A stretch of 64,000 bases of DNA from an uncultured Gemmatimonadaceae bacterium (GTDB lineage: Bacteria > Gemmatimonadota > Gemmatimonadetes > Gemmatimonadales > Gemmatimonadaceae), in NCBI GenBank assembly GCA_963817955.1, contig CAWFQK010000002.1, positions 864,001-928,000 of the forward strand. Reading direction: 5' to 3'. The notes beneath the pieces were generated by a model. That model had not been told where the DNA came from and did not search any database. It was given only the letters and a program-made list of their open reading frames with translations. Both the position numbers and the translations under genes were made by a program. Positions 23,158 through 48,856 of the stretch are shown in pieces (within the stretch, counting starts at the first letter, position 1; each line of letters begins with the position of its first letter).

Positions 23158-23406
23158 GGCTCTCCGTTCTAAATGGTGTGCGGGACGTCCGGCGATTGGC
23201 GCATCATGAAACCGGCATTGCTGCTAGGCGATCCAGTGGGTCCGAATAGCAGCAATGCGCATGGTGCGGAATCGTGCGTGCAAGTCGGACCCGATCGCCT
23301 CCACGTATCGAGGGCACGAATGGGGTACCAGCTGGCACCAGACCGGCGGCCACACCGCAAGCATCGGTCGGGACGTGCGCGAACTTGACTTGAAGTTCGT
23401 GGGTCA

Positions 23407-23597
23407 TCCGACTCTATAATAGTGGGCGGGAAAGATTAGAAGGTTGGGGTTTTCCGGCCTCATAATGGGTGGAATAGATTAGACGGTTCTCATCATCGGG
23501 GATCGAGGTCCCGCCCACCGCACTGGCCGTGACCCCCAGGATCGTCGCGTATGTCGTCCGGTCCGCCATCGCTGGTACTCTAATGAGAATACCATAC
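23407..23597 (+). repeat. Junction repeat X, copy A (5' half locally duplicated)
   Basis: GGAAAGATTA...TCTCATCATCGGGGATCGAGGTC...CCCACCGCA...CCATCGCTGGTACTCTAATGAGAATACC, aligns with 48710-48856. Confidence 0.9.
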
Positions 23598-23671
23598 TAT
23601 GCTGGGCGACCCACTCAAATCCCGGAGAGGGCTCACGTTCACGCCCGTCCGGTCGATACTTCCACGTCGGC

Positions 23672-24094
23672 ATGCTCGAAAAGTGGTTCCAGACGGTACG
23701 TAACCGTTGCCCATTTCAGCATGCCGTCGCCATCACGATCATCTCATCCGACACAATGCCCTCCTCCCTCGCTCGCACCTTCGCACAGAGTGACGTGCTC
23801 GGCAATCTTAGGGTGGTGGCAGGCGGTGACATCATCCCGGCGAGAGCCTCCGTGCGGCCATCCGAAGACGCTTCGGAACCAGAGGCCGGAATCACATCAC
23901 TCGAAATGACCCCGTGCCCATACTGCTCCGCCGAGGTTGCGTGCAGGCCTCACGTGATCAAACTGGGCGTTGATCCGCGGATTCAGATGTTCGCAAAGGC
24001 GGGTTACTGCCAGTGCGGCTTCGCCGTTCTGACGCCGTACGCACTGACCGCAATCGACGACATCGCGCGTGCGACGACATTGCGCGTGCGCTGA
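23672..24094 (+). CDS. Small zinc-ribbon protein (CPYC...YCQCG), copy 1; real start may be ~23906
   Basis: Duplicated at 47192-47437; a 17-bp duplication near 24055-24090 alters its C-terminus. Confidence 0.45.
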   Translation: MLEKWFQTVRNRCPFQHAVAITIISSDTMPSSLARTFAQSDVLGNLRVVAGGDIIPARASVRPSEDASEPEAGITSLEMTPCPYCSAEVACRPHVIKLGVDPRIQMFAKAGYCQCGFAVLTPYALTAIDDIARATTLRVR

Positions 24095-24183
24095 TGGCTT
24101 GCGACGGAGTCAGCGGGTGCACGCCTTGAAGGCGCTGGTGTCAAACGCGCCGGCCGTCCAGTGGCCCTGATGCTGTCCCCGGC

Positions 24184-24440
24184 GCGCTGATCGACCGTCT
24201 CCACCATGCGTCGGACCTCGTCCCAGGTGATCGCGCGTGGCACGTCCGCCAAGCGAGAGCGCTGCGGCATTTCCAGGATCCGACTCAGATCACGGCCGAG
24301 GATCCCTTCGCGATGGAGATTGGGTCGCGCCCTGCGCCTGCGCGAAGGGACCGAACTGCATCAACGAGGGCACACGGCGATAGACATTTCGGGTCGCGTA
24401 GCCGCGCTCCGTCATCCATGTGACGTAGCGCTCAGTTGGC
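24184..24440 (-). pseudogene. Tyrosine recombinase relic (RIT-element RitA-like), internally deleted
   Basis: ERYVTWMTERGYATRNVYRRVP joined to LHREGILGRDLSRILEMPQRSRLADVPRAITWDEVRRMVETVD. Confidence 0.7.
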
Positions 24441-24442
24441 AG

Positions 24443-24805
24443 TCACCGTAGCTTCCAGCTTCTCTGCCACACTCCGAAACCAGATTTCGACACGGTCGAA
24501 CGCGGTGTGGTGAGCGAGCTGAAATCGGGAACAGCCAGCAGTCGATGCTTCGCGATCGCCGCGATGGAATCCATATGGTGGATCCGCAGCGCAAGGCGCA
24601 GCGCGCGTAGTTTCGACGTCTCCTTTCTGCTGGCGCGGCCACCAACCTCCTGAGCGGTGGAGGATGCGCTGATTTGATCGATGGTGGCGGTGAGCTCCTG
24701 CCGAGCGAAAGAACGCATGAGCGGGGCGAACGCCGTGGGTTGGGCATCGAGAAACGCGTCGATGCGGCGGAGCGCTTGCCGCATACTGCCTTCGTGGTAT
24801 TTCAT
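24443..24805 (-). pseudogene. Fragment of a helical hypothetical protein fused downstream of the hsdM relic
   Basis: MKYHEGSMRQALRRIDAFLD...LRALRLALRIHHMDSIAAIA; begins where hsdM homology ends. Confidence 0.45.
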
Positions 24806-24806
24806 G

Positions 24807-25261
24807 TGGGGTCCGACGACTTCGACCATTGCCGCGATGAGCGCTCGCGGTGTGAAGTACTGTCCCGCGCCGCTCTTCACATCCTCGGCGTTCTTCTGGA
24901 GCAGGCCTTCGTAGGCGTCGCCCTTTACGTCGACGCCGAGGCTAGTCCATTGCTCCTTGCCAATGAGGTCGACGATGAGGCGGCGGAGCTTGGCCGGGTC
25001 CTGGATCTTGTTCTGTGCCTTCCGGAAGATGAGGCCCAGCAGGCCGGACTTCTTGCCGAGTTCTTCGAGAGTGCGTCGGTAGTGCACCTCGAGTTCGTCG
25101 CCTTCGACTTTCAGCAACGCGCTCCAGTCGAATCCCTTCGGGATGCGTGACGGTTTGTTGAAAGGTGGCCTGGACTGTTCATCCGCCATCTTGAGGAACA
25201 GCAGGAACGTCAACTGCTCGACGTAGTCGCCATAGGACAGGCCGTCGTCGCGGAGAATGTT
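24807..25261 (-). pseudogene. hsdM: Type I R-M hsdM N-terminal fragment
   Basis: Near-identical DNA to ~51670-52124 (NILRDDGLSY...AMVEVVGP). Confidence 0.92.
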
Positions 25262-25533
25262 ACGGATGTCGCGGATCCGCTCGAGCAGCTCATCGAAGTA
25301 GTCCGTCTGCCCTTTGCCGGGCGGATTCTTGAGCCGTTCGTCGTCCATGGTGAAGCCTTTCACCAGGAACTCGCTCAAGTGCGCGGTAGCCCACGGCGAG
25401 TATGGCTTGGAGGTTGTAGTGCTCCACCTCGCGGGTGACCTGCCGAGTGCCTTCCTGCCGAACTATCCGGAATTTCCGGATGGTTGGGCCCCGGGGCAAC
25501 TCGCCTTCGTCGAAGATGTTGACGAGGTGCTCG
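25262..25533 (-). pseudogene. RhuM-family (virulence/DNA-binding protein) relic with internal deletion
   Basis: HLVNIFDEGEL..TIRKFRIVRQEG..HYNLQAILAVGYR, then shifted frame LSEFLVKGFTMDDERLK..DYFDELLERIRDIR. Confidence 0.8.
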
Positions 25534-25782
25534 TCGCGGCGCGCCCAGCGGTCTGTCTCATTCAGCGGTGGCATTTCAGCGATATATTGATGTTTGCTCC
25601 GGCGGGACATCATTCAGTTGGGCGTGCCTCTCGCTATCTGGCGCGGCGGGCAGGTGGTCGAGGTCTCGCCGACAGTGTCGAGTTGCCCGTCGACGCCGGC
25701 GGCGCCATGGCTGACGACCGCTGACTCCGAACGGGAGCGACGAGGAGCGATAGATCGACGCAATACTACTTGCCGTGCCACA

Positions 25783-26331
25783 ATGACAAAACCGCGGATC
25801 AAGAGAATGAAGTCGCCGGCGAAGAGGCGGACTACGACGGCGTCATCAGGGGAGAAGCGGGTATTTTCGCTCGATGTATCCATCCTCAGCGGTCCGATGA
25901 GCAAACGCTTCGTCCGGAAGAATCCGAAGGTCTCGCGGACGATCGCGATCCGTGGCGACCACACGCTCGCGCAGCTCCACAGTGCGATCTTCCATGCCTT
26001 CGGCCGCGAAGAAGAGCACTTGTACGAGTTCCAGATTGGCGGCACGGGGCCGATGGACCCCAGCGCGCGGCGCTACGGGCTATCCATGGTCATCGATGAT
26101 CTCTTCGATGAACCAAAGAGCCACGGAAGCGTGGAGCGCACGACCGTCGACTCCCTCGGCCTCGCGATCGGCGACAGTTTCGGCTACTGGTTCGACTTCG
26201 GCGACGATTGGTGGCATCAGATTACCGTGCTCGCGATCACCGCAAAAGCGCCGCGCGGAAAGCTCCCCATAGTGACGCAGCGCGTCGGGCAGAACCCGCC
26301 GCAGTACGTGGACTGGGACGAAGAAGAATGA
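25783..26331 (+). CDS. Plasmid pRiA4b ORF-3 family protein
   Basis: RTIAIRGDHTLAQLHSAIFHAFGREEEHLYEF and YWFDFGDDWWHQI. Confidence 0.85.
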   Translation: MTKPRIKRMKSPAKRRTTTASSGEKRVFSLDVSILSGPMSKRFVRKNPKVSRTIAIRGDHTLAQLHSAIFHAFGREEEHLYEFQIGGTGPMDPSARRYGLSMVIDDLFDEPKSHGSVERTTVDSLGLAIGDSFGYWFDFGDDWWHQITVLAITAKAPRGKLPIVTQRVGQNPPQYVDWDEEE

Positions 26332-27062
26332 GGAAGCAGCCGGAGAAGTCCAAGATCAACGGCGTGCTCGAAGAGTTCCTCAAAGAGCAACGCTCGAGGC
26401 TCGCGCCCAGAACCCTGGCGAAGTACGACACTGTGCTCGATCTCCTGCAGACTCACTTGAACGGCTACGCCTCCGAGAGCTTGTCCGCATCGGAGGCGGC
26501 TCTCTTCGAGCGGTGCTACAACGCCAAAGGTGAGGAACACCGCGAGTTCTGCGAACTCTTCGGCCCGGAGAAGATCGTCGAGCATCTCGACAGCTTCCTC
26601 GGCTACTTCATGATTCGCAAGGTGATCGCCGGGGAGGACCTCCTGCGGTCGGCAGGCACCGTGACGAAGAAGCTCTCGCAGTGGCTCGGCGAGAATGGCT
26701 ACGTCTCACTCGAAGCCGGCGATGAAGCGATGGAGAGGAGCGCCGCCTCCGCCCGGGATTTGCCCAAGGCCGAGCGCGCTGCGCAGATTCTCCGCAACGT
26801 CACCGATCGGCTTTCGATCGATGCGTCGAAGCTCGCCGACGACGATTACCTGGAGTTTGATCACTACACGATCGCCAAGGTGGAGTCCGGTCAGCTTTGG
26901 CTTGCGGTCTGGCAGGATCAAAGGTTGCGCAAGGTTGGGCCGATCCCGGCTCCCGAATCCGCGACCCGATGGCTGCGTCCCGGCTGGTCCATCAGTTGTG
27001 CCTTGGGCCGAATTCGCAAGTCGTGGCGTCTTCTCGACGTGGCGAACGTATACCCTGGGTGA
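26328..27062 (+). CDS. Hypothetical protein with integrase SAM-like N-terminal helices
   Basis: ATGA overlap with upstream gene; LEEFLKEQRSRLAPRTLAKY. Confidence 0.7.
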   Translation: MRKQPEKSKINGVLEEFLKEQRSRLAPRTLAKYDTVLDLLQTHLNGYASESLSASEAALFERCYNAKGEEHREFCELFGPEKIVEHLDSFLGYFMIRKVIAGEDLLRSAGTVTKKLSQWLGENGYVSLEAGDEAMERSAASARDLPKAERAAQILRNVTDRLSIDASKLADDDYLEFDHYTIAKVESGQLWLAVWQDQRLRKVGPIPAPESATRWLRPGWSISCALGRIRKSWRLLDVANVYPG

Positions 27063-27598
27063 GCGCGGTCTGGCCGACAGCGCTTGGGCAGTGAAACCGA
27101 TGGCTCGACGCAATGGAACCGAGGAGAGCGGACGAAACTGCCGTCCGCGTTAGGCTCTCGGAAACCCGTGGGGATCGATGTTTACGTGTTCGCCGCTTTG
27201 CGCGGCATGAGTCCGACCGGTTGCATCCCCAAGCCGAAAAGCGCCCGCTCGGGCATCGGTCACGTCATAGTGAATCCGGAAGGTATCCGATACGAAAACT
27301 TCCATCCGCGTGGGAACGGCGCATCTGCGTGCGCCGGACCCCGGTAGTCCCAGTCGAGAACGGCATTGAGTTGCTCCACAGCACCTATCGCAGTGGGATA
27401 GAGCTGTTGGAGGATCGTCGCACTGAGGCGTCGGCATCGGAAGTACTGTCGGATTCTGTCTCCGAAGAAAGCGATCCGTCGCCACAGCCGGTGATGTCAC
27501 GGTGCTTCGGCTGGCTCCTCACTCATACGAGATCGCGGCGAGGGCGACAGCTTCCGTATGTGACCATTTGCAGCGAACGGCTATGCCACGAAGTTCGC

Positions 27599-27835
27599 TC
27601 AGCGGTCGCTCCCCTGGTCCTCCTGGTATAGCGGTTCGAGGTCGATGAGTTCGACGTCGGACCGCCCCCGAGCGACCGTTCGCACCTCGGTCGTGAAGGT
27701 CCCCGCGAAGGCGAGGAGCTTGGCGTTGGCCGCCCGCGGGCCCAGCGCGGCCCGCGCGGCTGTGAGCCGCGCGAGATGGCGGGCGTCGAAGCGCCGCCCA
27801 GCCTTTGCCTCGCCGAGTGCGAGGATCGTCCGGCC
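27599..27835 (-). pseudogene. C-terminal PD-(D/E)XK fragment of an ATPase/DUF234-type protein
   Basis: LALGEAK...RLTAARAAL...VELIDLEPLY, with no upstream ATPase. Confidence 0.5.
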
Positions 27836-27914
27836 GATCATGGCCTTGGGGACGGGTAGCATGATGACGGCTCCGGAAAGACCAGTATGCTATAGACTAC
27901 TCTACTAGTCTTTC

Positions 27915-29744: not shown

Positions 29745-29746
29745 CT

Positions 29747-29889
29747 GAGCTACTGTCGAAACGTGTGAAAACAGACGAAGACGGTGACCCCTTCTCCGGG
29801 GAGACCAATCACCCCCGGGAGAATCCCGGCAACGAAAAGGAGTTGCCGCCCATGAAGAAGGAAGGTTGAGCCAGCCACGTCAAGCGCGA
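29747..29889 (+). mobile_element. IS256-family left-end relic plus first codons of transposase
   Basis: Aligns with the reverse complement of ~38476-38620 (ATCACCCCCGGGAGAATCCCGGCAACGAAAAGGAG...ATGAAGAAG). Confidence 0.85.
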
Positions 29890-29892
29890 GCT

Positions 29893-29933
29893 GGAAAGAT
29901 TAGAAGGCTCTCATTATCGGGGGAGCGCAGGTC
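29893..29933 (+). repeat. Junction repeat X, copy B (partial)
   Basis: GGAAAGATTAGAAGGCTCTCATTATCGGGG. Confidence 0.8.
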
Positions 29934-29954
29934 ATCCGGGCTAGGGCACGCGCG

Positions 29955-30494
29955 CTACAGCCTCAATGTGAGACGGCGCTTCCCTGGGGTCGTCGGATCC
30001 AAGCGACGAAATCCGAAGTCGAGACGCTCGTACCACGCGAGGAGCTTGTCGTTCTTCGGATCGACGGCGAGGAAGGCCCCGCCTGTTTCGTCGCGAGCCT
30101 GCGTCGCGATCTTGATGGCGGCGGCGACCAGGAGCGACCCAAGTTCTTGACCCTGGAGGTGCGATGCCACACCGAGCCTTCCGAGCAGGTAGCCCCCGAC
30201 GGCGCGATATGGGACAGATTGCAGACCGAGCTGGCTGAGAACGGCCGGAGTTACCGGCACCGAAAGCGGCGACAGCGTGAAATATCCGGCGACCTGTGCG
30301 CCGGGATCACTCGCCTGAGAGTCGATCGCGATCCACACGCTGCTGAGACCAGCGGACTGCTCCGGGAGCGCACTGGATCTCAGGTAGTCGTCGATTTCCT
30401 GCGCGCCGGGATGATCGCCGCTGCTGAACTGTTGAACTTCGTGGTGCGCTGCGAGCTGGACGAGCGGGAAGCGCGGTCCAGAGTGAGAAGACAT
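29955..30494 (-). CDS. GNAT acetyltransferase toxin (AtaT/TacT-like)
   Basis: FSSG..EIDDYL, VAGYFTLS, LLGRLGVASHLQGQELG, VDPKN...WYERLDF. Confidence 0.85.
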   Translation of the reverse strand: MSSHSGPRFPLVQLAAHHEVQQFSSGDHPGAQEIDDYLRSSALPEQSAGLSSVWIAIDSQASDPGAQVAGYFTLSPLSVPVTPAVLSQLGLQSVPYRAVGGYLLGRLGVASHLQGQELGSLLVAAAIKIATQARDETGGAFLAVDPKNDKLLAWYERLDFGFRRLDPTTPGKRRLTLRL

Positions 30495-30521
30495 CGTCGA
30501 TTGCGTATCCGGCCAACCGGA

Positions 30522-30824
30522 TCAGATGCCGAACAGGGACTCGGCGCGCCGGGTCGCCGCTTGCAGCGCGGCGGTCGTGGGCACCGGAGCAGCGAGGATG
30601 CGCAGCAACTCGGCCTGCTCGGTGGCGGTGAGTCGCCATTCTTGCGTGCTGCCGATCTCGTTGGCAACTCGCTCGGCGAGCACCTCGACCACGTATTCCG
30701 ACAACGACTCCCCTCGGGACTTGGCGACGGTTTCGGCGTGTCGCTTCAGGACCTTCGGAAGCCGAGTCTCGAGCCGATCGTCCGCTGGCAAATCGAGATA
30801 AGCCTGAGCCGCGTTGGCTGGCAT
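30522..30824 (-). CDS. DUF1778 (RHH) antitoxin
   Basis: DRLETRL..GESLSEYV..WRLT..LLRILAAP; directly upstream of the GNAT gene. Confidence 0.85.
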   Translation of the reverse strand: MPANAAQAYLDLPADDRLETRLPKVLKRHAETVAKSRGESLSEYVVEVLAERVANEIGSTQEWRLTATEQAELLRILAAPVPTTAALQAATRRAESLFGI

Positions 30825-30937
30825 CGTAAACTCCTGCGAAAACCACGTACGGACAATGTACTACACTGTGTCTGTGCCGGCAAGCCTGGGACCGCTATCG
30901 CACACCCAGCTCGACACGACGTGGTTTCATCATCGGG

Positions 30938-31455
30938 ATCGCAAGTCTTCCGAAATCGCGGCGAACTGCTCCAACGCAGCTTCGAGATCAGCGGCGATAT
31001 CGGCCGCAATGACCTCGGGCGCCGGCAGGTTGGAGGATTCCTCCAGCGCTTCGTCCTTCAACCAGAAGATGTCCAGGTTGAGCTTGTCGCGCTTTGCGAG
31101 TTCCTCGTACGTGAAGCACTTGAAGCGCTCGCTCTCCTTCCGGCTGTTTCTGTTCTTCCGATTGTAGCACGCCGCGAAATCAACGAGGTCGCTCGGTTTG
31201 AGCGTGTTCTCCTTGAGCGTGAAGTGCATGTTGGTGCGCAGGTCGTAGATCCAGAGCTTCTGCGTCCACGGCTTTTCCTGCGCCGGCTTGCGGTCGAAGA
31301 AGAGCACGTTCGCCTTCACACCCTGGGCGTAGAAGATCCCGGTGGGGAGACGCAGCAGGGTGTGCACGTCCGCCTGCTTGAGCAGCTCTCGGCGAACGGT
31401 TTCGCCGGCGCCACCTTCGAACAGCACGTTGTCAGGCAGCACGACGGCCGCGCGA
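30938..31455 (-). pseudogene. hsdM: Type I R-M hsdM C-terminal fragment
   Basis: Near-identical DNA to ~50714-51231 (RAAVVLPDNVLF...AISEDLR). Confidence 0.92.
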
Positions 31456-31727
31456 ATCGCCACTCCCAAGTATTGCACCGGCGATCCGGCAATCCACGGT
31501 GCGGCAATCTGAGCCGTCTGCGCACCAGGCTTCGATCCGAGAACCCAATATACCTGGGCATACCCTTGGCCGTCCGTCACCATCGGGTTTCCGGCCGCGG
31601 CCGATGCCGACGTCTGGCCCACTACGAAGCGGCCTCCATCCGGCGTGCTGAAATAGACACTGATCCCTGGCTCGGCGGCGCTTGTGATGGGGTCGATGAC
31701 CAGTACCCGGCCAAAGGCTGACGTCAA
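31456..31727 (-). pseudogene. Ig-like (Big_1-type) domain fragment fused in frame to the hsdM relic
   Basis: VTDGQGYAQVYWVLGSKPGAQTAQI..GSPVQY. Confidence 0.6.
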
Positions 31728-31734
31728 CCTTCAT

Positions 31735-31776
31735 TATATAGATCCAGAATGTCGATATATAGATCCAGAATGTCGA
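31735..31776. repeat. Perfect 21-bp tandem duplication TATATAGATCCAGAATGTCGA x2
   Basis: Read directly. Confidence 0.95.
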
Positions 31777-31794
31777 TCCAGAGAGCGCTGATCG

Positions 31795-34278: not shown

Positions 34279-34300
34279 GGACGCACCCTGAGCATGGGGC

Positions 34301-34798: not shown

Positions 34799-37020
34799 GG
34801 AACGATGACCGGGTATTGAGTGAAGGTCGCGCTGGGAAGGAGATTGGAAAAATCCGGTCCGAGCAGTTCGGTTGCATTCAAGAAGATTCCGGTAGTGCCG
34901 GGGCTTTTTACGATGAAGCGCAACACCGCCAGCTGTACGATGCCGGTCACGCCCGCTGCCGATTCGCCGTTGATCCGAATGACATTCAAGGTCTGGTCGA
35001 TCGTTGTGACAGGCGCCATCGGGCTGCCGGTGGTGCTGATGTCGAGGAACTCCAAGGCGTTGAAATACGTGTCTGTCGATCCAGTGTAGACCGGCCAGGC
35101 CACGGTCGCAGTCACCGCACCGAGGGTCGCACCGCGCGTGTCCACCTGTACGCGGGCGGTGACCGTATCGCCGATGCGGAAGGCGAACCTGGTGAGGTCC
35201 GTGCGCAGGATCGGCCCAGAACTGCGCGGCACGATGATCAGCACCGAGTCGGAATTACTCAGAGTGCTCGTCGCCGCGACCCACGCCTGTCCTGGTGCGA
35301 CGGCCGTTATGCGACCTGCGCCGTCGACTGATGCGATGGCGGGGCTCCGCGCGACGAAGGTGATCGTCGGGTCGGTGGTCAGGACGATGCCGGTGCCTCC
35401 TGCGGCTGTGACCAAAGCCGGCGTGATTGCAGAACCGATGGCGACGATGCTGACCTTGTTCGCCGTGGTGCCGAATGTGTTGATGGTCGCCGGGTACACC
35501 ACCGTTGTCGTCCTCAACGGCTGGCCAAGCTGCCGGCTGGGGACGTAGAAGGAGAACGTTTGCCCAGCGGTGTAATTGAAGACCTCCAACTGGTTGAACA
35601 GTGTGCCGGTAGTTGACGGTGCAGGAGCCGACCACGCATACCTGACCCTCGTCGGGCTTGGGTTTGTCGGCGTGCATTGTTGTGCGCGGGAGGCGCCATT
35701 CCCATCCGTCGCCCACGATGCAGTGCCGAAGTAGAAAATCGCGCATAACGGCGCCGAGAGCACCTGGCTCGGATCCGTGAGCGTCAGATCAATCGGCACC
35801 GCCCTGTCCACGAACACCGTATCAGGTATCGTGACCACGGCAGAGAGCGCAGTCGCGGCAATCGACTGCGGCGTCACGGAACCAAAGAACACGCTCACCC
35901 CTGATATACGCCCGCCGGAAGTAACCAGAGGCAAATTATCGGGATCTGTCGATGCCGAATCCGCCACCTCGAGCCGCATGCGATACCCTGATCCTGCCGA
36001 GAGCGGCACCAGCAGAGTGTCCACACGGCGGTTGTTTCCGGGGAACTTGGTCATCTGCGGCGAAGTGAGCGTCCCCGAGTCCACTACCACATACCATCGG
36101 CTCGCAGGCCGAGGCGACGTCACCGCAAGCCGCACACCTGAGGCTGAGGCTGGTGCGACCGTGATGACGCTCGCCCCAGTCACACCGCCCGCACTCGCCG
36201 TGATCGTGGCCGAGCCAACGGCGACCGCGGTCACCAAGCCAGTCGAACTCACCGTCGCCTTTGTCGCGTCCGACGTGGTCCAGCTGACGGTGCGGCCGGT
36301 GAGCGTATTGCCACTGGCATCCTTGAGCATGGCGGTCAGCTGCTGCGTGCCGCCTACGCCCACGGACAGCGCGGCCGGTGCCACCGCGACCGTCGCGACG
36401 GGAACCGGAAGAATGGTGACGGCGGACGGGCCCGCCATTCCTTCGCTCGTCGCCGTGATCGTGGCCGAGCCAACGGCGACCGCAGTCACCAAGCCAGTCG
36501 AGCTCACCGTCGCCTTTGTCGCGTCCGACGTGGTCCAGCTGACGGTGCGGTCGGTGAGCGTATTGCCACTGGCATCCTTGAGCGTGGCGGTCAGCTGCTG
36601 CGTGCCGCCTACGACCACCGACGGTGAGGCTGGTGCCACCGTGACCGTCGCGACCGGCACAGGAAGAACCGTAATGGATTGCTGTCCCTGCTTTCCACCA
36701 CTCGACGCGATGATCACCGTCTGGCCGGGTGCGACGCCCGTCACGACGCCTGCCGTCGTAATGGTTGCAACCGACGCTAAAGTTGTGGACCACGTGACTG
36801 CGCCAACGGCGATGGGCGCCCCGTTTTGATCCAGGCCGGCAGCCGTTGCAGACGCCGATTGCGCGACCTGAATCGTCGGCGCCGAGAGCGTGACTGTGAC
36901 GGTCGTGAGAACTCGTACGACGGGTGCGATCGGTTCCGTTGCACCGCTGCACGACAGCGTCGCGATTGCGAGGACGGCGAGCCCGGCTCGACCGAATGAC
37001 GATATTTGAGGACAGGGCAC
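34795..37020 (-). CDS. Lipoprotein scaffold: Big_2 Ig repeats + C-terminal cohesin-like domain
   Basis: Likely GTG start at 37020; lipobox TLSC; VSWTTSDATKATVSSTGLVTAVAVG repeats (255-bp DNA duplication at 36197/36452); GDTVTARVQV...IRINGESAAGVTGIVQLAVLRFIVK. Confidence 0.8.
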   Translation of the reverse strand: MPCPQISSFGRAGLAVLAIATLSCSGATEPIAPVVRVLTTVTVTLSAPTIQVAQSASATAAGLDQNGAPIAVGAVTWSTTLASVATITTAGVVTGVAPGQTVIIASSGGKQGQQSITVLPVPVATVTVAPASPSVVVGGTQQLTATLKDASGNTLTDRTVSWTTSDATKATVSSTGLVTAVAVGSATITATSEGMAGPSAVTILPVPVATVAVAPAALSVGVGGTQQLTAMLKDASGNTLTGRTVSWTTSDATKATVSSTGLVTAVAVGSATITASAGGVTGASVITVAPASASGVRLAVTSPRPASRWYVVVDSGTLTSPQMTKFPGNNRRVDTLLVPLSAGSGYRMRLEVADSASTDPDNLPLVTSGGRISGVSVFFGSVTPQSIAATALSAVVTIPDTVFVDRAVPIDLTLTDPSQVLSAPLCAIFYFGTASWATDGNGASRAQQCTPTNPSPTRVRYAWSAPAPSTTGTLFNQLEVFNYTAGQTFSFYVPSRQLGQPLRTTTVVYPATINTFGTTANKVSIVAIGSAITPALVTAAGGTGIVLTTDPTITFVARSPAIASVDGAGRITAVAPGQAWVAATSTLSNSDSVLIIVPRSSGPILRTDLTRFAFRIGDTVTARVQVDTRGATLGAVTATVAWPVYTGSTDTYFNALEFLDISTTGSPMAPVTTIDQTLNVIRINGESAAGVTGIVQLAVLRFIVKSPGTTGIFLNATELLGPDFSNLLPSATFTQYPVIVP

Positions 37021-37058
37021 TGCGACCCCTGTTAAGAGAGGAAGGTTCGATTCTAGCC

Positions 37059-37158
37059 GAGCTAATCTTAAGAGGAGTGGAAATAGACAGCGGGGCGGTG
37101 ACGCTTTCTCGGGTGAGACCAATCACTCACGGGAGAATCCCGGCAACGAAAAAGGAGC
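37059..37158 (+). mobile_element. IS256-family left-end relic (second copy)
   Basis: GAGCTAATCTTAAGAGGAGTGGAAATAGAC...GGGAGAATCCCGGCAACGAAAAAGGAGC aligns with the intact IS left end. Confidence 0.85.
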
Positions 37159-37166
37159 TAACGCGC

Positions 37167-37195
37167 TATCGGGGATCGAGGTTCAGCCCACCGCA
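37167..37195 (+). repeat. Junction repeat X, copy C (partial)
   Basis: TATCGGGGATCGAGGTTCAGCCCACCGCA. Confidence 0.8.
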
Positions 37196-37242
37196 CCAAT
37201 TCTATCTGCGCGGCCCGTGACTGAATTGGCGTCACTCCTTCG

Positions 37243-38620
37243 GAGCTCTTGTCAATTGGTGTGTAAATAGGCGTCAGGCGGCGATCCGTTCTCGAGTCGG
37301 GGTCATGGTGCAGATGCCGTCGTGAAACACGGCGCCATCGTACACGTCGGTGCAGCGGTGCGGGGCGTTCAGTTTGCGGAAATGTTGTTCGACGACGAGT
37401 AAGGTTTTCCAGATCAACGTTGTCGCATTGTCGACTTTCTTGAAACGCTTCGCCGCGGTCGTGCGGAGCCGCACCGCGGCAAACGGAGACTCGATCACGT
37501 TCGTCGTGCGCAGATGCTTCCAGTGCTCCTGCGGAAAGGCGTAGTACGCGACCAGGCGGTCCCAATCCCGCTCGAGGCACTCGACGGCTTTGGGCACCAC
37601 GCGACGGTACGTGCGGGCAAACGCGTCGCGCAGCCGCTCCGCCGCCCGCTGTGTCTCCGCCGCGGCGATCTGCTGGAGCTGCACGGTGACTTCGGCTTGG
37701 CGTTTCGTCGGCACCAGGTCGAGCACGTTCCGCAGCTTGTGATTCCAACACCGCTGCTCGGCACTCGTCGGATAGATTGCCGCGAGAGCGCCCCAGAGGC
37801 CGAGATGCCCATCGGCGATCGTGAGCTTGGGGGCGCAGAGCCCGCGCGCCTTCAGGTCGCGGAGCACGGCGGTCCAGCTCACCACCGATTCCCGCTCGCC
37901 ACTGGTCACCGCGAGGACGTGTTTCCGCCCCTCCGCGTCGGCGCCGATCAACACCAGGAGCGCCGCCTTGCTATGCTCAAGCCCCGCTTTCACATACACG
38001 CCGTCCGCCCAGAGATACACCAGCTTGAGGGCGCTCAGGTCGCGCCGCTGCCACACCGCATACTCCGCCTGCCACGTCGCCTTGAGGCGCACAAGCGAGC
38101 TCGCACTCAGCGGCGCCCCATCGCCCAACAGGCCGCGAAGCGCGAGTTCGAAATCCCCGAGCGCGAGGCCATGCAAATACAGCTCGGGCAACAGCGTGCT
38201 CAGTTCCTTGGTGCGCCGCTGAAAGAGCGGCAGCAGGCGGCTCACGAACAGCTCATCCAGGTCGCGCACCCGTGGCCGGCGCACCACGATGGTCCCATTC
38301 ATGAGCGCGAGGTTCCGAGGCTTCCCGTGCCCGTTGCGCGCTCCGGTCGGCGCATCCACCGCGCTACGACGCGCGGACTTCGGTCGCCCGAGCAGCTCGG
38401 TCACCTCCTCTTCCAACAGCTGCTGAATGAATCCTTGGACATGCATCCGGGCAAAGGATTCCAATGTGTCCCACGTCGCGCTTGACGTGGCTGGCTCAGC
38501 GTTCATCTTCTTCATGGGCGGTGGCTCCTTTTCGTTGCCGGGATTCTCCCGGGGGTGATGGACTCACCCGAGAAGGTGTCACCGCCTTCCGTCTATTTCC
38601 ACACCTTTTGACATTAGCTC
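37243..38620 (-). mobile_element. Intact IS256-family insertion sequence (1378 bp) with 8-bp TSD CTCCTTCG
   Basis: Imperfect terminal IRs GAGCTCTTGTCAATTGGTGTGTAAATA / TATTTCCACACCTTTTGACATTAGCTC; TSD at 37235-37242 and 38621-38628. Confidence 0.95.
37274..38515 (-). CDS. IS256-family (Mutator-type) DDE transposase
   Basis: YLWADG, IADG, QRCWNHK, RTTNVIES. Confidence 0.95.
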   Translation of the reverse strand: MKKMNAEPATSSATWDTLESFARMHVQGFIQQLLEEEVTELLGRPKSARRSAVDAPTGARNGHGKPRNLALMNGTIVVRRPRVRDLDELFVSRLLPLFQRRTKELSTLLPELYLHGLALGDFELALRGLLGDGAPLSASSLVRLKATWQAEYAVWQRRDLSALKLVYLWADGVYVKAGLEHSKAALLVLIGADAEGRKHVLAVTSGERESVVSWTAVLRDLKARGLCAPKLTIADGHLGLWGALAAIYPTSAEQRCWNHKLRNVLDLVPTKRQAEVTVQLQQIAAAETQRAAERLRDAFARTYRRVVPKAVECLERDWDRLVAYYAFPQEHWKHLRTTNVIESPFAAVRLRTTAAKRFKKVDNATTLIWKTLLVVEQHFRKLNAPHRCTDVYDGAVFHDGICTMTPTRERIAA

Positions 38621-39670: not shown

Positions 39671-39723
39671 AATGATTCCGTTAATTGAGGTTGGAGGTGT
39701 GTGAACGAACGCTTCGTGCCTTG

Positions 39724-40722: not shown

Positions 40723-40912
40723 CGATATTGGGATTGGAGAGTCCGACTGTTACCGATTGCGGCCGGAGAGAGGTGCAAGCCGACGGCAAGTCGTGACTTG
40801 GATTCCACGATGGCGCTCACGCGATTTGCACAGGAATGCGTGCGCCACAGGCGAAAACCAATCTGCGTCATTCCGTCGAGGCGCCTGACGGCGCCCCAAC
40901 GGCGCGCTCTAC

Positions 40913-41896: not shown

Positions 41897-42219
41897 CGGA
41901 GCTCTGTCTTGGTGGTTATTGGAGGTAATGCATTGGTGCCAAACCGGTGAGTCTTGTCTGCGTAACTCGCCCGTTGCTTCTTGACCGCGACGGCGACACA
42001 AGCAACTACGGCGGGCGCATTCTTAGAACCCCATGCTGGTCCTGAAAAGCAGTGAGACGTGCCCTGGGAACTACACGTCCCGGTTGTAGAGACTTGCACA
42101 GCGGTCCGCACGGTCGGCACCTATGCTGTATTGCCGCCAAAGCGGTACATACTTTATCATGCGACATCACGAACGCCAAAATGGCAATTCCAACAGTATC
42201 GGCTCTCCCCATTCAAACA

Positions 42220-45200: not shown

Positions 45201-45321
45201 TTCCGATAAACCGAGCGCCGCCGAGGCATTGCATCGTGCGCAACGGGAACTGCGAGTAGGGGTGCCGGGGATGGAGTCGCCTGCGCAGTGGGCGGGATTT
45301 CAGGTGGTTGGTGCTGGCTAA
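42220..45321 (+). CDS. CHAT-domain (caspase-like, clan CD) protease with TPR-like N-terminus and signal peptide
   Basis: AERGRAQAL, LNLVPFAAL, IHIASHG (His), VVLSACET (Cys), WAGFQVVG. Confidence 0.9.
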   Translation: MNRFADLVLLVAVASIPSFGLATRSEAQHPPGMPAADRRRALADAHTAVDAGEHGASASLNSMRLAALERLGNAYLRTCHPDSARTIAASLLREVPASDVSNARFRLLAGRALGACSTGNLYPQFERTQMERDSALTLFTHAAEEAKRGGDAETAFAALIEAVPLIALRRATDTLAPVALAQVALSHARVLTLNPSMGAAPGAIARREAFLSVAAARIEMVRSSTMSDASAAAYQDALARTNAAGDTTLLEDLLAERATHYRNALMDEEGPARFDSARVLLTRDRDVALAAHDTLELIRAHNRLIELTGLGDQSGLRGGDHEMSVELREVRALARATGERRFTSPYLLSIVALRELEAGRVDTAEVVAAEARALVSASGDSTALVTVTTVQQLIRQKVGRASSVGNADGDRVIQVEGKVDSPACLAVECKAKAATAEQPPATTDDAPVRAAIAHARALPPDGSAASDTDRLRARLDAARLQNEWTRRFPTNEIPADASLAKRSYADTLLAACASLLRWGKEPSAASFAAAVEARHAAARGDSLGAIAMYRRAGVLADDADPVTSALQHGIIAGQLMHLRSPAAFAEASAQLAAAADAVARARRHAGGDANRVALADAAWSANIFRLWAAVEFARERPLAMLAIAERGRAQALADLRDSGRQTREEIPLDSAQSAAVVEGLDREASALVRRALRHARAVLVHRFMAGGLVTWLFTDAGFKIDLASGVSPQSLADLSPSGIPFGADTLLTRQLARYLLPPGMRDLLPGAGELLVVTDGTLNLVPFAALPLDGRHLLGDEHAVRVAPSLALVGEPAARPTSPSEVLVVGNPTMPRVATTDGKNRQLPSLPGSEAEARAVAGLFGATPLLGAAATETAVRLRLPHAALIHIASHGRAFANPETARNSFVALAPDSTNDGFLTVGELLDPGGPTLIAGLVVLSACETALGDPTRSEGVVGLQRAFLASGARTLLVTLWPVSDRAAALIVRRFYAHWQGDSDKPSAAEALHRAQRELRVGVPGMESPAQWAGFQVVGAG

Positions 45322-45509
45322 CCAATCGGGCGAATGAGAATCAGGATGGCGAGAGTGCGGACCGCAGCAGGCCAGACGCCTTTACAGCGATCCGGGAGCC
45401 CCGTACGCTTCGCCTGCTCCCCGCTGGCTGTCGAAATCCGTCGGCCCGACACGTGGATGATACAGAGCACGGCACGGTCGCCGTGGCCTAATCGAGGACA
45501 CCAAGACCT

Positions 45510-46118
45510 TTGTCGCCAACGGCCGATGCTGCTTTTTCACGGATCTATGAATCGCAGTACGCGCTACTCGTTCGCCAGATGCGCCGGCAGTATCGAGCGC
45601 AGAGCGATGCTGTCGAGGACGTGGTCCAGGATGCGTTTCGCAAGCTCTGGGAGCGCCTGGCCAATGCGACGGCGGAGGAGTGGAGGCAAGAGTGGGGTGG
45701 GTGGATCTTTCGCGTCGCGAACAATGCGATGCTTGATCGTACCCGTACCGCACGTCGCCACGCCTCGGAGCCGATCGACGACATGGAACGCACCGCCGGC
45801 GCGGTGGACCGTGCCGCGTTACAGGAGGGTCTTCGCGGCGCGATGGATGGTTGGCAGGGGAACGGGTTTCTCGGGAGCGACGAGGATGGCGCGATGGGTG
45901 AAGGCACGGAGGAGCGACTGGATGCAATGCGCGCGGTGCTGCGGGAGCTTCCCGACCGCGACCGCGTCTTACTGACGCTCAAGTACATGGATGGCCTATC
46001 GTACGAGCAGATCGCCGAGCGCACCGGGTATGCGCGCGGCGCACTCGGAACGCTGTTGCTTCGCGCTCGGCGCGCTGCGGAGGCAGGTATTCGACGCGTC
46101 CAGAGGGCCCCATGCTGA
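45510..46118 (+). CDS. ECF sigma-70 factor
   Basis: EDVVQDAF..W, WIFRVANN (region 2); LPDRDRVLLTLKYMDGLSYEQIA (region 4). Confidence 0.9.
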   Translation: MSPTADAAFSRIYESQYALLVRQMRRQYRAQSDAVEDVVQDAFRKLWERLANATAEEWRQEWGGWIFRVANNAMLDRTRTARRHASEPIDDMERTAGAVDRAALQEGLRGAMDGWQGNGFLGSDEDGAMGEGTEERLDAMRAVLRELPDRDRVLLTLKYMDGLSYEQIAERTGYARGALGTLLLRARRAAEAGIRRVQRAPC

Positions 46119-46948
46119 CCGAACGGGACGAGGAGCTGCTGCAGGCCTATCTCGATGGCGAAGCCACCGCCGAGCAGGAACGGGTCGTGGAGCTTCGACT
46201 CGCGAACTCCCGGGAATGGGGCGAGGCAGAAGCACGACTTCGCGAGACGATGGCCGCGTGCGCAGAGCTGTTCGCGCCCCTCGCCGAAGATGATACCGTG
46301 CTGCTCCGGTCGATACCGAAGGCCACCCTCGCCGCGACGCCGTTGGGGCAGAAACGCGCGCACCGCATGGTGCCAATCTGGGCTGGAGGTCTTGCCGCCG
46401 CCGCTGCGATCGTCGGGATCGCGTTCATGCTGCGAGACGGCGTGGTCCTGCACCGCGCCACGGCGCCAGCGCACGTCGCCTCTGCTGAGCGGGAGAAAGT
46501 TCCCGGCGCTGTCCCGGCCGCGCCGGCGTTGCGGGACGCCATATCGGGTGCAATCGCTTCGCCTCGCGCCCCGATCGACCGGCGGGCTGCGCATACCCAG
46601 AGTGAGTCCGGCGTCGAGCTCGCGGGTTACGTGCCCTCTCGAGTCGTGACAGACTCCACGCTCGGCGTGCCGGTGACTCACGTCGATTACGCGCTGGCTG
46701 GTGGCAGCACGCTGACCCTCGAGCTCAGCGATGCCATCGGCGGGGATACACGGAGCATCCCGGGCGCGCCGCTGTCGGTCGCGGACACGACGCACGGAGC
46801 GACGTTCGTGCGGGGAGACGCCACGAATTCACTTACCTGGCGATTACCGGATGGTCGTGTCGCGCGGCTGTCGGCATCGCTTCCCGAAACGAAGCTTCGG
46901 CAACTGCAGCGACGCGTACGGGCCGTAACGTTGCCTGCTCATCGGTGA
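46112..46948 (+). CDS. Transmembrane anti-sigma factor (zf-HC2-like N-terminus lacking zinc ligands)
   Basis: LLQAYLDGE...; TM WAGGLAAAAAIVGIAFML; overlaps sigma gene stop. Confidence 0.8.
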   Translation: MLTERDEELLQAYLDGEATAEQERVVELRLANSREWGEAEARLRETMAACAELFAPLAEDDTVLLRSIPKATLAATPLGQKRAHRMVPIWAGGLAAAAAIVGIAFMLRDGVVLHRATAPAHVASAEREKVPGAVPAAPALRDAISGAIASPRAPIDRRAAHTQSESGVELAGYVPSRVVTDSTLGVPVTHVDYALAGGSTLTLELSDAIGGDTRSIPGAPLSVADTTHGATFVRGDATNSLTWRLPDGRVARLSASLPETKLRQLQRRVRAVTLPAHR

Positions 46949-47191
46949 ATTTCGAGTAGGCCCCGTGCGTCTGGCGGGGCGCTGTCACATCCTGTGGCTC
47001 CAGGACGGGTGGCTCATGTGCACGCCCGTTCCGGTCGACACCTCCACGGTCAATATGATCGAGAGGCGGTTCCAGGCGGCGCGCACCCGTTGTCCATTTC
47101 AGCATTCCGTCGCCGAGTGTGCAAATACTCGCGGGCGCGTCGTGAAGAGAATACGCTCGTTATATGATCCTTCACGTGCGTCGCGTTTGCG

Positions 47192-47437
47192 GTGGCTGAC
47201 ATGACTTCGCGTATAATGACATCACTCGACATGACCCCGTGCCCGTACTGCTCTGCCGACGTTGCGTGCAGGCCTCACGTGATCAGGCTGGGCGTTGATC
47301 CCCGGATTCAGGTGTTCGCAAACGCGAGTTACTGTCGGTGCGGCTTCGCCGTGCTCACGCCGTACGCACTGACCGCGATCGACGACATCGCGCGTGCGCT
47401 GATGGCTCGCGACGGAGTCAGCGGGCGCACGTCTTGA
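47192..47437 (+). CDS. Small zinc-ribbon protein, copy 2
   Basis: MTPCPYC...YCRCG; 47021-47449 is homologous to 23640-24140. Confidence 0.5.
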   Translation: MADMTSRIMTSLDMTPCPYCSADVACRPHVIRLGVDPRIQVFANASYCRCGFAVLTPYALTAIDDIARALMARDGVSGRTS

Positions 47438-47488
47438 AGGTGCTGGTGGGCAGGCGCGTCGGAGAGCCGGCGCCAAACTATCGCGTTC

Positions 47489-47872
47489 TCAACTCGCCGA
47501 CAGCAGTCGCACCTTCTCAGCTTCGAACTGCACATCGGTGAGCATGCCAGCCTGTTTCAACTCGTGCAGTTCCTTCAGCTTGCCGATACGATCCGTCCCG
47601 CCCGCCCCAGTCGCGTTCGCCGTATTGGCGACGTTGACGATGATGTTCTGCGGCTGCGCGGTCGCGAATCCGACATTGTACTTCGCATTGAACGCGGCGT
47701 CGCTCATGATCAGCAGCAGAATGCACTCGACCAATGCGACGATGGCGGGAATGAACGTCCAGCAGAACAAGAGATACAGAATACCCTGGCCGCCCCGGTC
47801 GAGATAGAACTTATGCGCGCCAAAGCCGCCCAAGAAGAACGCCAGTACGGCGGCGGTGCCTTTGCTCTTCAT
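47489..47872 (-). CDS. TM2/NINE-domain membrane protein with C-terminal SHOCT
   Basis: LAFFLGGFGAHKFYL, LYLLFCWT; LKELHELKQAGMLTDVQFEAEK. Confidence 0.88.
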   Translation of the reverse strand: MKSKGTAAVLAFFLGGFGAHKFYLDRGGQGILYLLFCWTFIPAIVALVECILLLIMSDAAFNAKYNVGFATAQPQNIIVNVANTANATGAGGTDRIGKLKELHELKQAGMLTDVQFEAEKVRLLSAS

Positions 47873-47906
47873 CGTCAGTACTCCACGGGTTTGATGTGAA
47901 CTGCTG

Positions 47907-48494
47907 TCACGCGTCGTCTCGGATCCTGGACGTGAGATCGCGCGGTGCTTTGAGGAATGCGTAGTAGTAGTCGCCGGTTTCCACGTCGACGTCTTCGACG
48001 AGCTCGCCGCGCCGTCGGAGCCATCCGAGCGCGCGCACGACGTCCCCCTCGCTCCAACCGAGTTGTGCGCGAATCCAGTCAACTGTTTGGAACGAATGCG
48101 ACCGCGCAATCAACGCACTGACGGCAGCGACCGCCTCACGCGTTGAAGGATCCGGTGCGGGTGTGCCGCGGATTGGCAACCCGTAGTGTCGCATTACGCC
48201 CAACACCACTGTTCCAATACCAACGGGAATCAGAATCGCGCCGTCGCGTAGAAACTCCAATGCGGATTCGGGGAAACCACCGTGGACGAGAACGGCGCCC
48301 ACGCCGAATAGCGCGATCGCGGTCCCGAGTACGAGGTAGGTCGGAGTGGAGAGGGGAATCCATTGAAGAAATGCGAGTCCCACCTCGGGCGGCGGCGATA
48401 CACGAACGCCGCTCATCGCGGACAGCGGATCATTCCCGCCGATTCTGATCTGCGAGCCTTTCACACTCACATCGCCAACTCGAATCTCATCCAT
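47907..48494 (-). CDS. Two-TM membrane protein with winged-helix-like C-terminus
   Basis: Two hydrophobic helices; TVDWIRAQLGWSEGDVVRALGWLRRRGEL. Confidence 0.6.
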   Translation of the reverse strand: MDEIRVGDVSVKGSQIRIGGNDPLSAMSGVRVSPPPEVGLAFLQWIPLSTPTYLVLGTAIALFGVGAVLVHGGFPESALEFLRDGAILIPVGIGTVVLGVMRHYGLPIRGTPAPDPSTREAVAAVSALIARSHSFQTVDWIRAQLGWSEGDVVRALGWLRRRGELVEDVDVETGDYYYAFLKAPRDLTSRIRDDA

Positions 48495-48681
48495 CGGCTC
48501 TCCCGCCGTCGATCGCCAAGGTGCAAAGTGGCGAAAAGCTTATCCCTACCGCAGCGCCAGCAATGACGAAGTTGGCGGCGCTCTGTTGGCGGTGAACGAC
48601 CCGGCGCGGAAGTCGTTCCGTCGCGGGCGTTGCATTCGGTAGGCGACTGTGCTCCATGCTTCGTACAATTTCGCGCCCGAT

Positions 48682-48707
48682 GATCTCTTGTCAATTGGTG
48701 TATGAAT
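48682..48707 (+). mobile_element. IS256 right-end IR relic
   Basis: GATCTCTTGTCAATTGGTGT matches 37243-37262 with one mismatch. Confidence 0.7.
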
Positions 48708-48709
48708 CT

Positions 48710-48856
48710 TCCGGCTTTATAGTGGATGGGAAAGATTAAAGCGGCTCTCATAATTGGGGATCGAGGTCCAGCCCACCGCAGTGGAAGTAGATCGCCAGGA
48801 TGGTCGCACATAGCGTCCGGCTATCCATCGCTGGTCCTCTAATGAGAATACCCTAC
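48710..48856 (+). repeat. Junction repeat X, copy D (full length)
   Basis: Aligns along its length with ~23452-23597. Confidence 0.9.

Follow-up and report, generated by a model that had tools for sequence, protein, structure and literature searches.

A low-copy repeat in two strain-specific islands of a soil bacterium: possible terminal segment of a decayed mobile unit

Organisation of the locus

The window (the whole 64-kb stretch of DNA analysed) carries a short repeat, X, at four sites in one orientation, at the coordinates given by an earlier reading made from the sequence alone (Table 1). The intervals between these copies measure 6.5, 7.3 and 11.5 kb and contain genes on both strands, one IS256, a TacA/GNAT toxin-antitoxin pair and hsdM fragments. 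The gene layout described in the sequence-only reading was borne out, with a minus-strand gene start to the left of each copy and with X2, X3 and X4 placed shortly downstream of minus-strand stops. The GGAAAGATTA box was found at X1 (twice, the second copy being GGAATAGATTA), X2 and X4. Two of the four sites, X2 and X3, are fragments of 33-44 nt. The window also holds a true high-copy repeat (18160-18610), which occurs at 173 loci.

Table 1. Coordinates of repeat X and of associated features in the window.
Feature	Position	Strand	Remarks
Left flank common to X1 and X5 only	23318-23398	+	Marks segmental duplication; outside X proper
X1, longest copy	23399-23609	+	Two tandem left-end units, then core and right arm
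X1 left-end units	23399-23441 and 23442-23484		Tandem, ~43 nt each
R-proximal block	23610-23731	+	Conserved spacer after X in X1 and X5; recurs at 46999-47164
Small-ORF block	23890-24140	+	Zinc-ribbon ORF 23906-24094 (P0001)
Relic of ~424-aa tyrosine recombinase	24004-24442	-	Internal deletion; truncated after ~aa 258
IS256-family 5' end fragment	29747-29889	+	IR and ~143 nt; outer end abuts TPR-GGDEF gene start
X2, partial copy	29890-29933	+	X6-like; ~45-nt deletion at left, cut at right
IS256-family 5' end fragment	37059-37164	+	~105 nt
X3, X core fragment only	37165-37199	+
Complete IS256-family insertion sequence	37242-38620	-	413-aa Transposase_mut gene
R4, R-proximal block	46999-47164	+	No X on left
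Small-ORF block, second copy	47215-47448	+	ORF 47231-47437 (P0002)
IS256-type terminal inverted repeat	48682-48707	+	26 nt; inner side toward X4
X4, full single-unit copy	48708-48868	+	Lacks first 4 nt of common left end

X1 (23407-23610) and X4 (48709-48864) were aligned with 79.5% identity over 156 nt (E 3e-31), and X3 (37168-37196) with 93% over 29 nt (E 3e-5). A nhmmer profile of the four full copies (E < 0.01) detected X at seven places in the 4.53-Mb genome, including the fragments X2 (29893-29930, E 1.4e-4) and X3 (E 1.8e-3). Outside the window, two further full copies lie on contig C4 (X5, C4:173962-174165; X6, C4:175168-175332) and a distant seventh copy, X7 (C2:289782-289911), lies 570 kb from the window copies. 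X5, like X1, has two ~43-nt direct units. In all seven cases a minus-strand gene starts 0-260 nt to the left.

Boundaries and flanks of the repeat

The left end of X is sharp. X4, X6, X7 and X1a/X5a start at most 4 nt from GGGTCTTCCGGC with unrelated left flanks, and identity between copies is 48-58% over 50 nt leftward vs. 64-80% over 95 nt rightward. The metagenome contig L024 terminates exactly at this common boundary. There are few independent junctions (~4 or 5), so that the sharp end is defined by few events. The right ends vary: X6 extends ~20 nt deeper into R, and in X7 and L024 the divergence begins ~60 nt sooner. In genome G013 a dsbA-like gene is intact (274 aa); here X7 has taken the place of its 5' two-thirds, at the point where similarity to G013 ends. 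On its right, X1-R1 runs into a truncated recombinase gene. A second end was found in neither inverted nor direct form; the genome contains no inverted copy of the left end at up to 4 mismatches, and no inverted partner of GGGTCTTCCGGC was seen by eye at the right ends. Neither a transposase nor an intact recombinase was associated with X at any copy.

The flanks of X1/X5 and X2/X6 are paralogous (84-88% identity). Window 23318-23731, comprising X1 and its flanks, matched C4:174254-173839 at the X5 locus with 84% identity over 414 nt; for the TPR gene, IS fragment and X2, identity to the X6 locus was 88% (86% between the TPR proteins). IS256-family end fragments directly adjoin X2, X3, X4 and X6. 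One composite of gene start, IS256 5' fragment and X is common to X2, X3 and X6, which are set apart by deletions. The proposal that repeated insertions had stacked cargo here therefore fails: X2, X3 and X6 are one duplicated composite with deletions, and X1/X5 and X2/X6 have paralogous flanks. The IS256-type repeat next to X4 shares 88% identity with the IS end at 37243-37268; an IS256 extending rightward past X4 was rejected, as no IS256 continuation was present there.

The stretch 46999-48868 (1.87 kb) consists of R4, a zinc-ribbon ORF, two TM2-type membrane genes and X4. Its layout looks like a circular permutation of X1-R1, and the end of X4 and the start of R4 fall within ~7 nt of one point of X1-R1 (window 23602-23609). 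Contigs from three metagenome runs of one study (region share 0.30, 0.09 and 0.00), too thin to weigh for or against, showed neither a 48868-46999 joint nor an empty site; the four joints listed had sides of only 21 nt. None of the RNA runs listed contained the region. The C-terminus of the P0001 ORF is frame-shifted by a 17-nt tandem duplication. The predicted fold of the zinc-ribbon ORF was confident (pLDDT 88.5), and its best PDB matches were weak (the N-terminal zinc domain of MqsA, E 0.25, TM 0.47; ZifS). No homologues of the protein were found in collections of genome contigs and viral contigs, and no X-like sequence was found upstream of a third zinc-ribbon ORF on contig C4.

The tyrosine-recombinase relic

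Two parts of the relic survive, ~50 aa at the N-terminus (24293-24442) and, at about 24185-24270, a segment around LADVPRAITWDEVRRM. The relic matched seven tyrosine recombinases with 76-89% identity over about 30 aa, and within the genome it is most closely related to the leading gene of a RIT-like cluster of three recombinases. The sequence-only reading had tentatively assigned X to this RIT-type recombinase. The relic is real, but none of the seven PF00589 genes of the genome lies on contig C2, near C4:174 kb or near any X. The intact trio (C4:1708587-1711899) is not flanked by X copies, as no X-like sequence was found in the 8 kb around it, where the best matches were at chance level (12-17 nt). 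The truncated side of the relic, not its upstream side, faces X1-R1, which indicates that the adjacency is a rearrangement junction. A search for P0011/P0013-type recombinases yielded only 36%-identical homologues in 150 relatives and none in 400 phylum genomes or in viral contigs.

Folding and coding potential

Both the inverted ends (TCTCAT/ATGAGA) and the inner stem (GGGGATC/GGTCCTC) described earlier exist, but the outer helix of X6 is broken (3 of 6 pairs). The right arm of the hairpin is missing in X7 and L024, where divergence sets in before it. The stem comprises 13 pairs, and when G-U counts as a pair, 90% of cells are paired. For the stem as originally proposed, a two-sided change was observed in none of the 13 pairs, which was equalled in 500 of 500 shuffles. 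Folding z-scores were -0.2 to -2.0 (DNA-fold, +0.8 to -2.2), and the RNAalifold covariation term was a penalty of +1.75, with 1 of 40 pairs compensatory. X thus has no conserved hairpin: covariation support is lacking, and stability is no better than that of shuffled sequence. At gathering scores, Rfam gave no matches across the window, and the best E-value around X1 was 3. A structured small RNA or cis-regulatory RNA, which had been offered as the alternative, is very improbable on these values and with relatives lacking X, even though in X1, X4 and X5 the terminal inverted repeat is able to enclose a domain of ~100 nt.

Divergence of X is of a non-coding kind. Between X1 and X5, 61 substitutions in 414 nt were distributed 20/17/24 over codon phases, together with 6 single-base gaps, and X was conserved no better than its flanks. 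X was rejected as coding sequence on the missing frame signal, loss of the minus-strand start codon in X5 and lack of similarity to IS256 transposase; nor did it resemble the IS256-family IS itself. As part of a dsbA-like gene it was rejected because its translation is unlike the intact G013 protein (by eye).

Several other identities were discarded. For a tRNA-derived att site, the window contains no tRNA, and X is unlike the tRNA-Gly and tRNA-Leu of the C4 island (by eye). For a dif/Xer-type site, the X units are unlike the single site of the genome that we take to be dif-like (C4:390911-390938, by consensus; comparison by eye). The left end presumably resembles Tn3- or ISL3-type inverted repeats. 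The genome has no DDE_Tnp_Tn3 gene and X no inverted partner, which speaks against a Tn3-family end. Alignment of X to the only ISL3-type end of the genome was equalled by 810-1963 of 2000 shuffles; ISL3 is represented by a single 46-aa transposase fragment (C1:533614-533751).

Distribution

The genome-wide scatter of an ordinary REP was not observed, as all seven places are in variable DNA. Same-genus genomes in which the island flanks are ~300 bp apart lack window ~18.1-60.8 kb, and the X locus of C4 is a ~15-kb island adjoining tRNA-Gly and tRNA-Leu. Searches gave no convincing match to X in 60 relatives (4 borderline, 22-85 nt, E about 1e-3), none in 300 family genomes and none in plasmids (blastn). 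The X core pattern had no match in collections of genome contigs and metagenome contigs, and a second X pattern none in viral contigs. One metagenome contig, L024, matched X, and in one study two soil-metagenome runs contained X-like variants as loose ends.

Interpretation

X has a defined copy set with a common left and a variable right boundary, paralogous flanks and IS256 junctions. In our view the odds are about even that X formed one end (~100-190 bp) of a mobile unit, about 0.75 kb long, that is restricted to its lineage and has since decayed. The longest surviving form of this unit would extend from 23399 to ~24140 and comprise X, the R spacer (130-190 nt) and the 62-68-aa zinc-ribbon ORF. 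Copies of X would first have inserted at unrelated places, and such early landing would explain the sharp common left end and the truncated neighbour genes. Later, segmental duplication between the two strain-specific islands may have multiplied X passively along with its flanks, and deletions beside IS256 fragments may afterwards have eroded the copies. The mobility of the ancestor of X, and the kind of enzyme behind it, we infer. X had earlier been called a recombinase site or element end; an element end fits the sharp left boundary, but no link of X to a recombinase was found. The present copies are most likely inert debris, although they may still serve the gene on the left as portable upstream DNA. 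A minus-strand gene start left of every copy is unpredicted by an inert relic, and passive decay explains only awkwardly the R4/X4 permutation of X-R with its matching break points. X shows the exchange and reshuffling of segments between two such islands in a single soil bacterium, in which IS256 did most of the eroding.

It is fairly unlikely that X was never mobile and is plain intergenic DNA, copied by segmental duplications and rearrangements in plastic islands. The alike flanks of X1/X5 and X2/X6, the even divergence over X and flanks and the failure to find an enzyme or second end would agree with this, but X4, X6, X7 and L024 have the same start point despite unrelated left flanks, X7 lies far off at a gene truncation, and one copy is on the contig of another organism, yet 30 same-genus genomes lack X. 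The constant position beside minus-strand gene starts would suit a portable promoter or leader that reads leftward from the element end and was kept because it drives the adjacent gene. This putative function, which we regard as unlikely, is also consistent with X7 standing where a dsbA'-macB pair has lost its native upstream part and with A+T-rich TATAAT/TATAGT-like boxes inside the left-end unit. However, a consensus scan detected no sigma-70-type promoter at X1 or X4 on either strand, and with ~4-5 independent copies the one-sided layout has, by our estimate, a roughly 3-6% chance.

The permutation of X1-R1 in R4...X4, the genuine relic beside R1 and the two direct units of X1 and X5, as candidate arm-type binding sites, could point to X or the X/R junction as a site-specific recombinase site, with R-to-X units as cassettes that move in and out as circles. 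We hold this to be quite unlikely: the break points differ in X6 and in X7/L024, no intact recombinase lies near any copy, the hairpin has neither stability nor covariation in its favour, X2 and X3 are deletion products, and between copies there are numerous genes on both strands besides the IS, toxin-antitoxin pair and hsdM fragments. It is a long shot that crossover takes place at the X/R junction (~23602-23609) in a site-specific recombination system not described before, for which a RIT-like tyrosine recombinase might act in trans. The stretch 46999-48868 would then be an integrated circle, and X1-R1 and X5-R5 unsplit sites. If true, a soil bacterial lineage would carry small cassettes of a new kind, with a composite site as long as ~300 nt, which would suggest a new cassette-like system with ties to RIT-type recombinases.

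Comparison with known systems

In integron arrays, an IntI-type tyrosine recombinase adjoins the array, and each cassette has one or few promoterless, co-oriented ORFs with complete sites at both sides. The attC sites have RYYYAAC/GTTRRRY cores and an imperfect hairpin (R''/L'' with L'/R') that is kept across sites despite sequence divergence. The sequence-only reading had reported that X lacks these cores. X copies likewise lie in the same orientation between gene units and have imperfect inverted ends. In contrast to integrons, X has no integrase nearby, no conserved bottom-strand hairpin, a spacing of 6-11 kb across which numerous genes lie on both strands, variable right boundaries and partial copies that are deletion products. 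The cassette-array architecture suggested by the sequence-only reading thus gives way to an eroded, duplicated composite with variable right ends and no intact recombinase nearby; repeats in the same orientation between cargo genes need not mean a cassette array.

MITEs are recognised by terminal inverted repeats at both extremities and a target-site duplication, and REP/BIME-like repeats occur in tens to hundreds of copies across the chromosome. Like MITE, REP and ERIC repeats, X is a short intergenic sequence that does not code for protein and has some inverted symmetry. Unlike in MITEs, its extremities form no terminal inverted repeat (by eye), and, unlike REP and ERIC repeats, X has only 7 copies and is not genome-wide.

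The RIT literature (PMC10214605) describes RIT elements as three recombinase genes with 34-bp terminal inverted repeats and states that their transposition has not been reproduced in the laboratory. A relic resembling the first RIT gene adjoins X1-R1, and the genome also has an intact trio; X differs in having no inverted-repeat pairing, in being absent at the trio, in facing the truncated C-side of the relic and in having one broken relic at X1 instead of three adjacent recombinase genes. Solo IS or transposon ends in islands differ from X in that, for X, no parent element, transposase or second end was found, and its left end is no more similar to an IS end of this genome than chance would give. 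With such ends X shares a low copy number, a location in strain-specific DNA, one sharp end with unrelated flanks, truncation of neighbouring genes, differing copy lengths and a lack of coding signal.

Copies of repeat X and their distribution

The whole assembly, 9 contigs with 4.53 Mb in total, was searched for repeat X with blastn, using X1 (window 23407-23610) and X4 (48700-48870) as queries. X1 and X4 aligned over 156 nt with 79.5% identity (E 3e-31), the core of X3 was matched over 29 nt (93%), and two more full copies, X5 (84%) and X6 (78%), were found on contig C4. A nhmmer profile was made from the four full copies and run genome-wide. It recovered these four with E 5e-57 to 3e-49, X2 with E 1.4e-4 and X3 with E 1.8e-3, and added the distant copy X7 on contig C2 (E 7.7e-7); below E 0.03, no further X was present besides an extra left-end unit of X1. 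X is thus real and sits where the sequence-only reading had put it. In total X occupies seven places, compared with 173 loci for a true high-copy repeat, and is therefore no genome-wide REP.

BLAST against 60 relatives did not find X, giving just four borderline matches (22-85 nt, E ~1e-3), and the left-end pattern with up to 3 mismatches occurred in 0/300 family genomes. Pattern searches of genome_contigs and of viral_contigs were likewise empty, as was a blastn search of plasmids. Among metagenome contigs, a first X pattern gave no match and a second one hit a single contig, L024. Two runs of a single soil-metagenome study also contain X-like variants, as loose ends.

Coordinates of features (window positions unless a contig is named)
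Feature	Location	Remarks
X1	23399-23609	
X2	29890-29933	
X3	37165-37199	
X4	48708-48868	
X5	C4:173962-174165	
X6	C4:175168-175332	
X7	C2:289782-289911	
R4, second occurrence of spacer block R	46999-47164	no X on left
Blocks with Cys-rich ORF	23890-24140; 47215-47448	250 nt
Zinc-ribbon ORF P0001	23906-24094	
Zinc-ribbon ORF P0002	47231-47437	
17-nt tandem duplication	23980-24010	GCGCGTGCGACGACATT-type
Recombinase relic ORF	24004-24270	minus strand, 88 aa
Complete IS256-family element	37242-38620	Transposase_mut, 413 aa
hsdM	50691-52328	type I restriction-modification
hsdS	52231-53712	type I restriction-modification
DUF1016/YhcG	54046-55347	type I restriction-modification
hsdR	55344-58052	type I restriction-modification
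hsdM fragment	24443-25378	N-terminal part, fused to RhuM-like piece
hsdM fragment	30930-31727	C-terminal part
GNAT acetyltransferase, TacA-like antitoxin	29955-30824	minus strand
Tandem duplication in Big_2 gene	36195-36704	255 bp, 88-94% identical
High-copy composite repeat	18160-18610	
RIT-like trio	C4:1708587-1711899	
dif-like site	C4:390911-390938	

Anatomy of the unit

The copies of X are nested pieces of one longer unit. X1 and X5 have a stretch of 414 nt in common (84%, window 23318-23731), which takes in ~80 nt left of X and the conserved block R on the right. A separate block, present twice in the window, carries a Cys-rich ORF of 62-68 aa, and a third, diverged copy of the ORF lies within the C4 island. 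Its predicted structure is confident (zinc ribbon plus helix, pLDDT 88.5), and the best PDB matches are weak (MqsA N-terminal domain and ZifS, E 0.25-0.4). A search of 1.84 billion representatives gave 7 matches at E <= 1e-3, which makes this a very rare protein family. The 17-nt tandem duplication shifts the C-terminal frame of P0001 relative to P0002.

X has a sharply defined left end. X6, X7, L024 and the left-end units X1a and X5a start with GGGTC(T/A)TC; X4 starts 4 nt further in than other copies. Identity between copies is 48-58% in the 50 nt left of the start, the level of unrelated G+C-rich DNA, versus 64-80% in the 95 nt to its right, and L024 ends at the exact base of the boundary. 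The earlier suggestion of an element end is upheld by this common boundary against unrelated left flanks. Right ends vary: X4 ends at ~48868, X6 extends ~20 nt beyond this into R, both X1 and X5 run through R, and X7 and L024 diverge ~100-130 nt into X.

Island setting

Genomes of the same genus lack window ~18.1-60.8 kb and have its two flanks ~300 bp apart (for example in G005, at C3:521048 and 521366). X5 and X6 lie on C4 within ~15 kb of DNA that comes after tRNA-Gly and tRNA-Leu; five relatives lack this stretch. X7 sits at the exact point where similarity to genome G013 ends. It has taken the place of the 5' two-thirds of a dsbA-like gene, of which G013 has an intact copy (274 aa).

All of window ~18.1-60.8 kb is a strain-specific island of ~42.6 kb. 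Its exact left edge is marked by the high-copy composite repeat (292 BLAST pieces, 173 loci, all 9 contigs), in which motifs of ACTCACAAC type stand in tandem and a GCAAAGCCTGTCATCCTGAGC unit occurs twice. The island encodes a Fic protein, a CHAT-domain protein, an anti-sigma-like gene, secreted Big_2, BNR and dockerin proteins and a type I restriction-modification system. The gene of the 775-aa Big_2 protein contains a perfect-register tandem duplication. A second hsdM gene survives as two fragments, 94-96% identical to the intact copy, whose order a single insertion cannot account for. The acetyltransferase-antitoxin pair lies directly right of the truncated X2. On G013 contig C39 (L019, 377-816), the intact dsbA-like and macB-like genes have upstream of them coding sequences for two small Cys-rich secreted peptides of 60 aa each, ending ...CC..S..GWFNCSA, an arrangement that resembles a bacteriocin- or RiPP-type cluster. 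In the genome studied here, X7 and other DNA stand in place of these genes.

Junctions

A 5' fragment of the IS256-family element found complete at 37242-38620 precedes each of X2, X3 and X6. The fragment's outer inverted repeat adjoins the start of a minus-strand gene, and X follows on its truncated inner side. In front of X4 stands a 26-nt inverted repeat of IS256 type, and IS sequence does not resume on the right of this copy. TPR gene, IS fragment and X form a paralogous set in two islands (88% DNA and 86% protein identity over 432 aa), X2 differing from X6 by a deletion of ~45 nt. Neither the repeated stacking of cargo proposed earlier nor a cassette array is borne out. X1 and X5 have unrelated proteins on their left, so that the flank shared by these copies must be a piece of duplicated DNA rather than a gene's conserved upstream region.

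Recombinase relic

The relic ORF matches seven tyrosine recombinases of 198-425 aa with 76-89% identity over ~30 residues; PF00589 is present in 7/7 of them and PF02899 in 6/7. By eye, the neighbouring frame 24293-24442 resembles their N-terminus. The relic gene is missing residues ~68-205 and all beyond ~258. On these sequence matches the relic near X1, already noticed earlier, is real.

No support was found for the proposed tie between X and this recombinase. Contigs of up to 14.6 kb carry recombinases of the P0011/P0013 type. In this genome, the gene closest to P0011, a full-length recombinase matched by the relic, is the first of a three-recombinase cluster (36% identity, E 5e-51). No X was found near this RIT-like trio, and 0/7 PF00589 genes of the genome lie near any X copy. 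The side of the relic toward R1 is the truncated one, and the adjacency therefore seems another rearrangement junction, not a site-enzyme pair. The genome's single dif-like site has 3 mismatches to the dif consensus. The trio itself consists of adjacent, partly overlapping genes at the very end of C4, followed by a palindrome with a 15-bp stem (CGTAATGTGGAGTCG...CGACTCCACATTACG). As described in PMC10214605, RIT elements comprise three recombinase genes plus terminal inverted repeats of 34 bp, and movement of these elements is untested.

Interpretation

Plus-strand RNA folding of four X copies gave z-scores of -0.17 to -1.34, minus-strand folding of two copies +0.12 and -1.99, and DNA folding +0.81 to -2.22. 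RNAalifold on the four full copies returned a covariation term of +1.75, a penalty, with 1/40 compensatory pairs, and a search of Rfam found nothing; that X is an RNA gene, the structured ncRNA offered earlier as an alternative, is highly improbable. The earlier hairpin site fared no better: its stem of 13 pairs is paired in 90% of cells with 0 two-sided changes, and its score was reached by 500/500 shuffles. R4...X4 (46999-48868) amounts to X1-R1 circularly permuted, with both break points no more than ~7 nt from a single position (window 23602-23609); for this reason a recombination site survives as a minority reading, if an improbable one. X1 and X5 differ by 61 substitutions (codon phases 20/17/24) and six single-base gaps, and X is no more conserved than its flanks. 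A minus-strand gene start lies to the left of every copy, and X could be a portable leftward promoter; no sigma-70-type promoter was called on either strand at X1 or X4, and this role is rather unlikely. Plain duplication without any mobile origin would leave duplicated DNA such as that at X1 and X5, and is unlikely beside the boundary common to unrelated places.

A two-step history fits the data and is given an even chance. Several unrelated places would first have received a small unit of at least 0.75 kb, made up of X, R and the zinc-ribbon ORF and having a defined terminus on its left. Its copies, flanks included, would then have been duplicated between two plastic islands, and erosion would have followed, for the most part next to IS256 remnants. 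On this reading X is of an already known kind, the relic ends that mobile DNA leaves in genomic islands.
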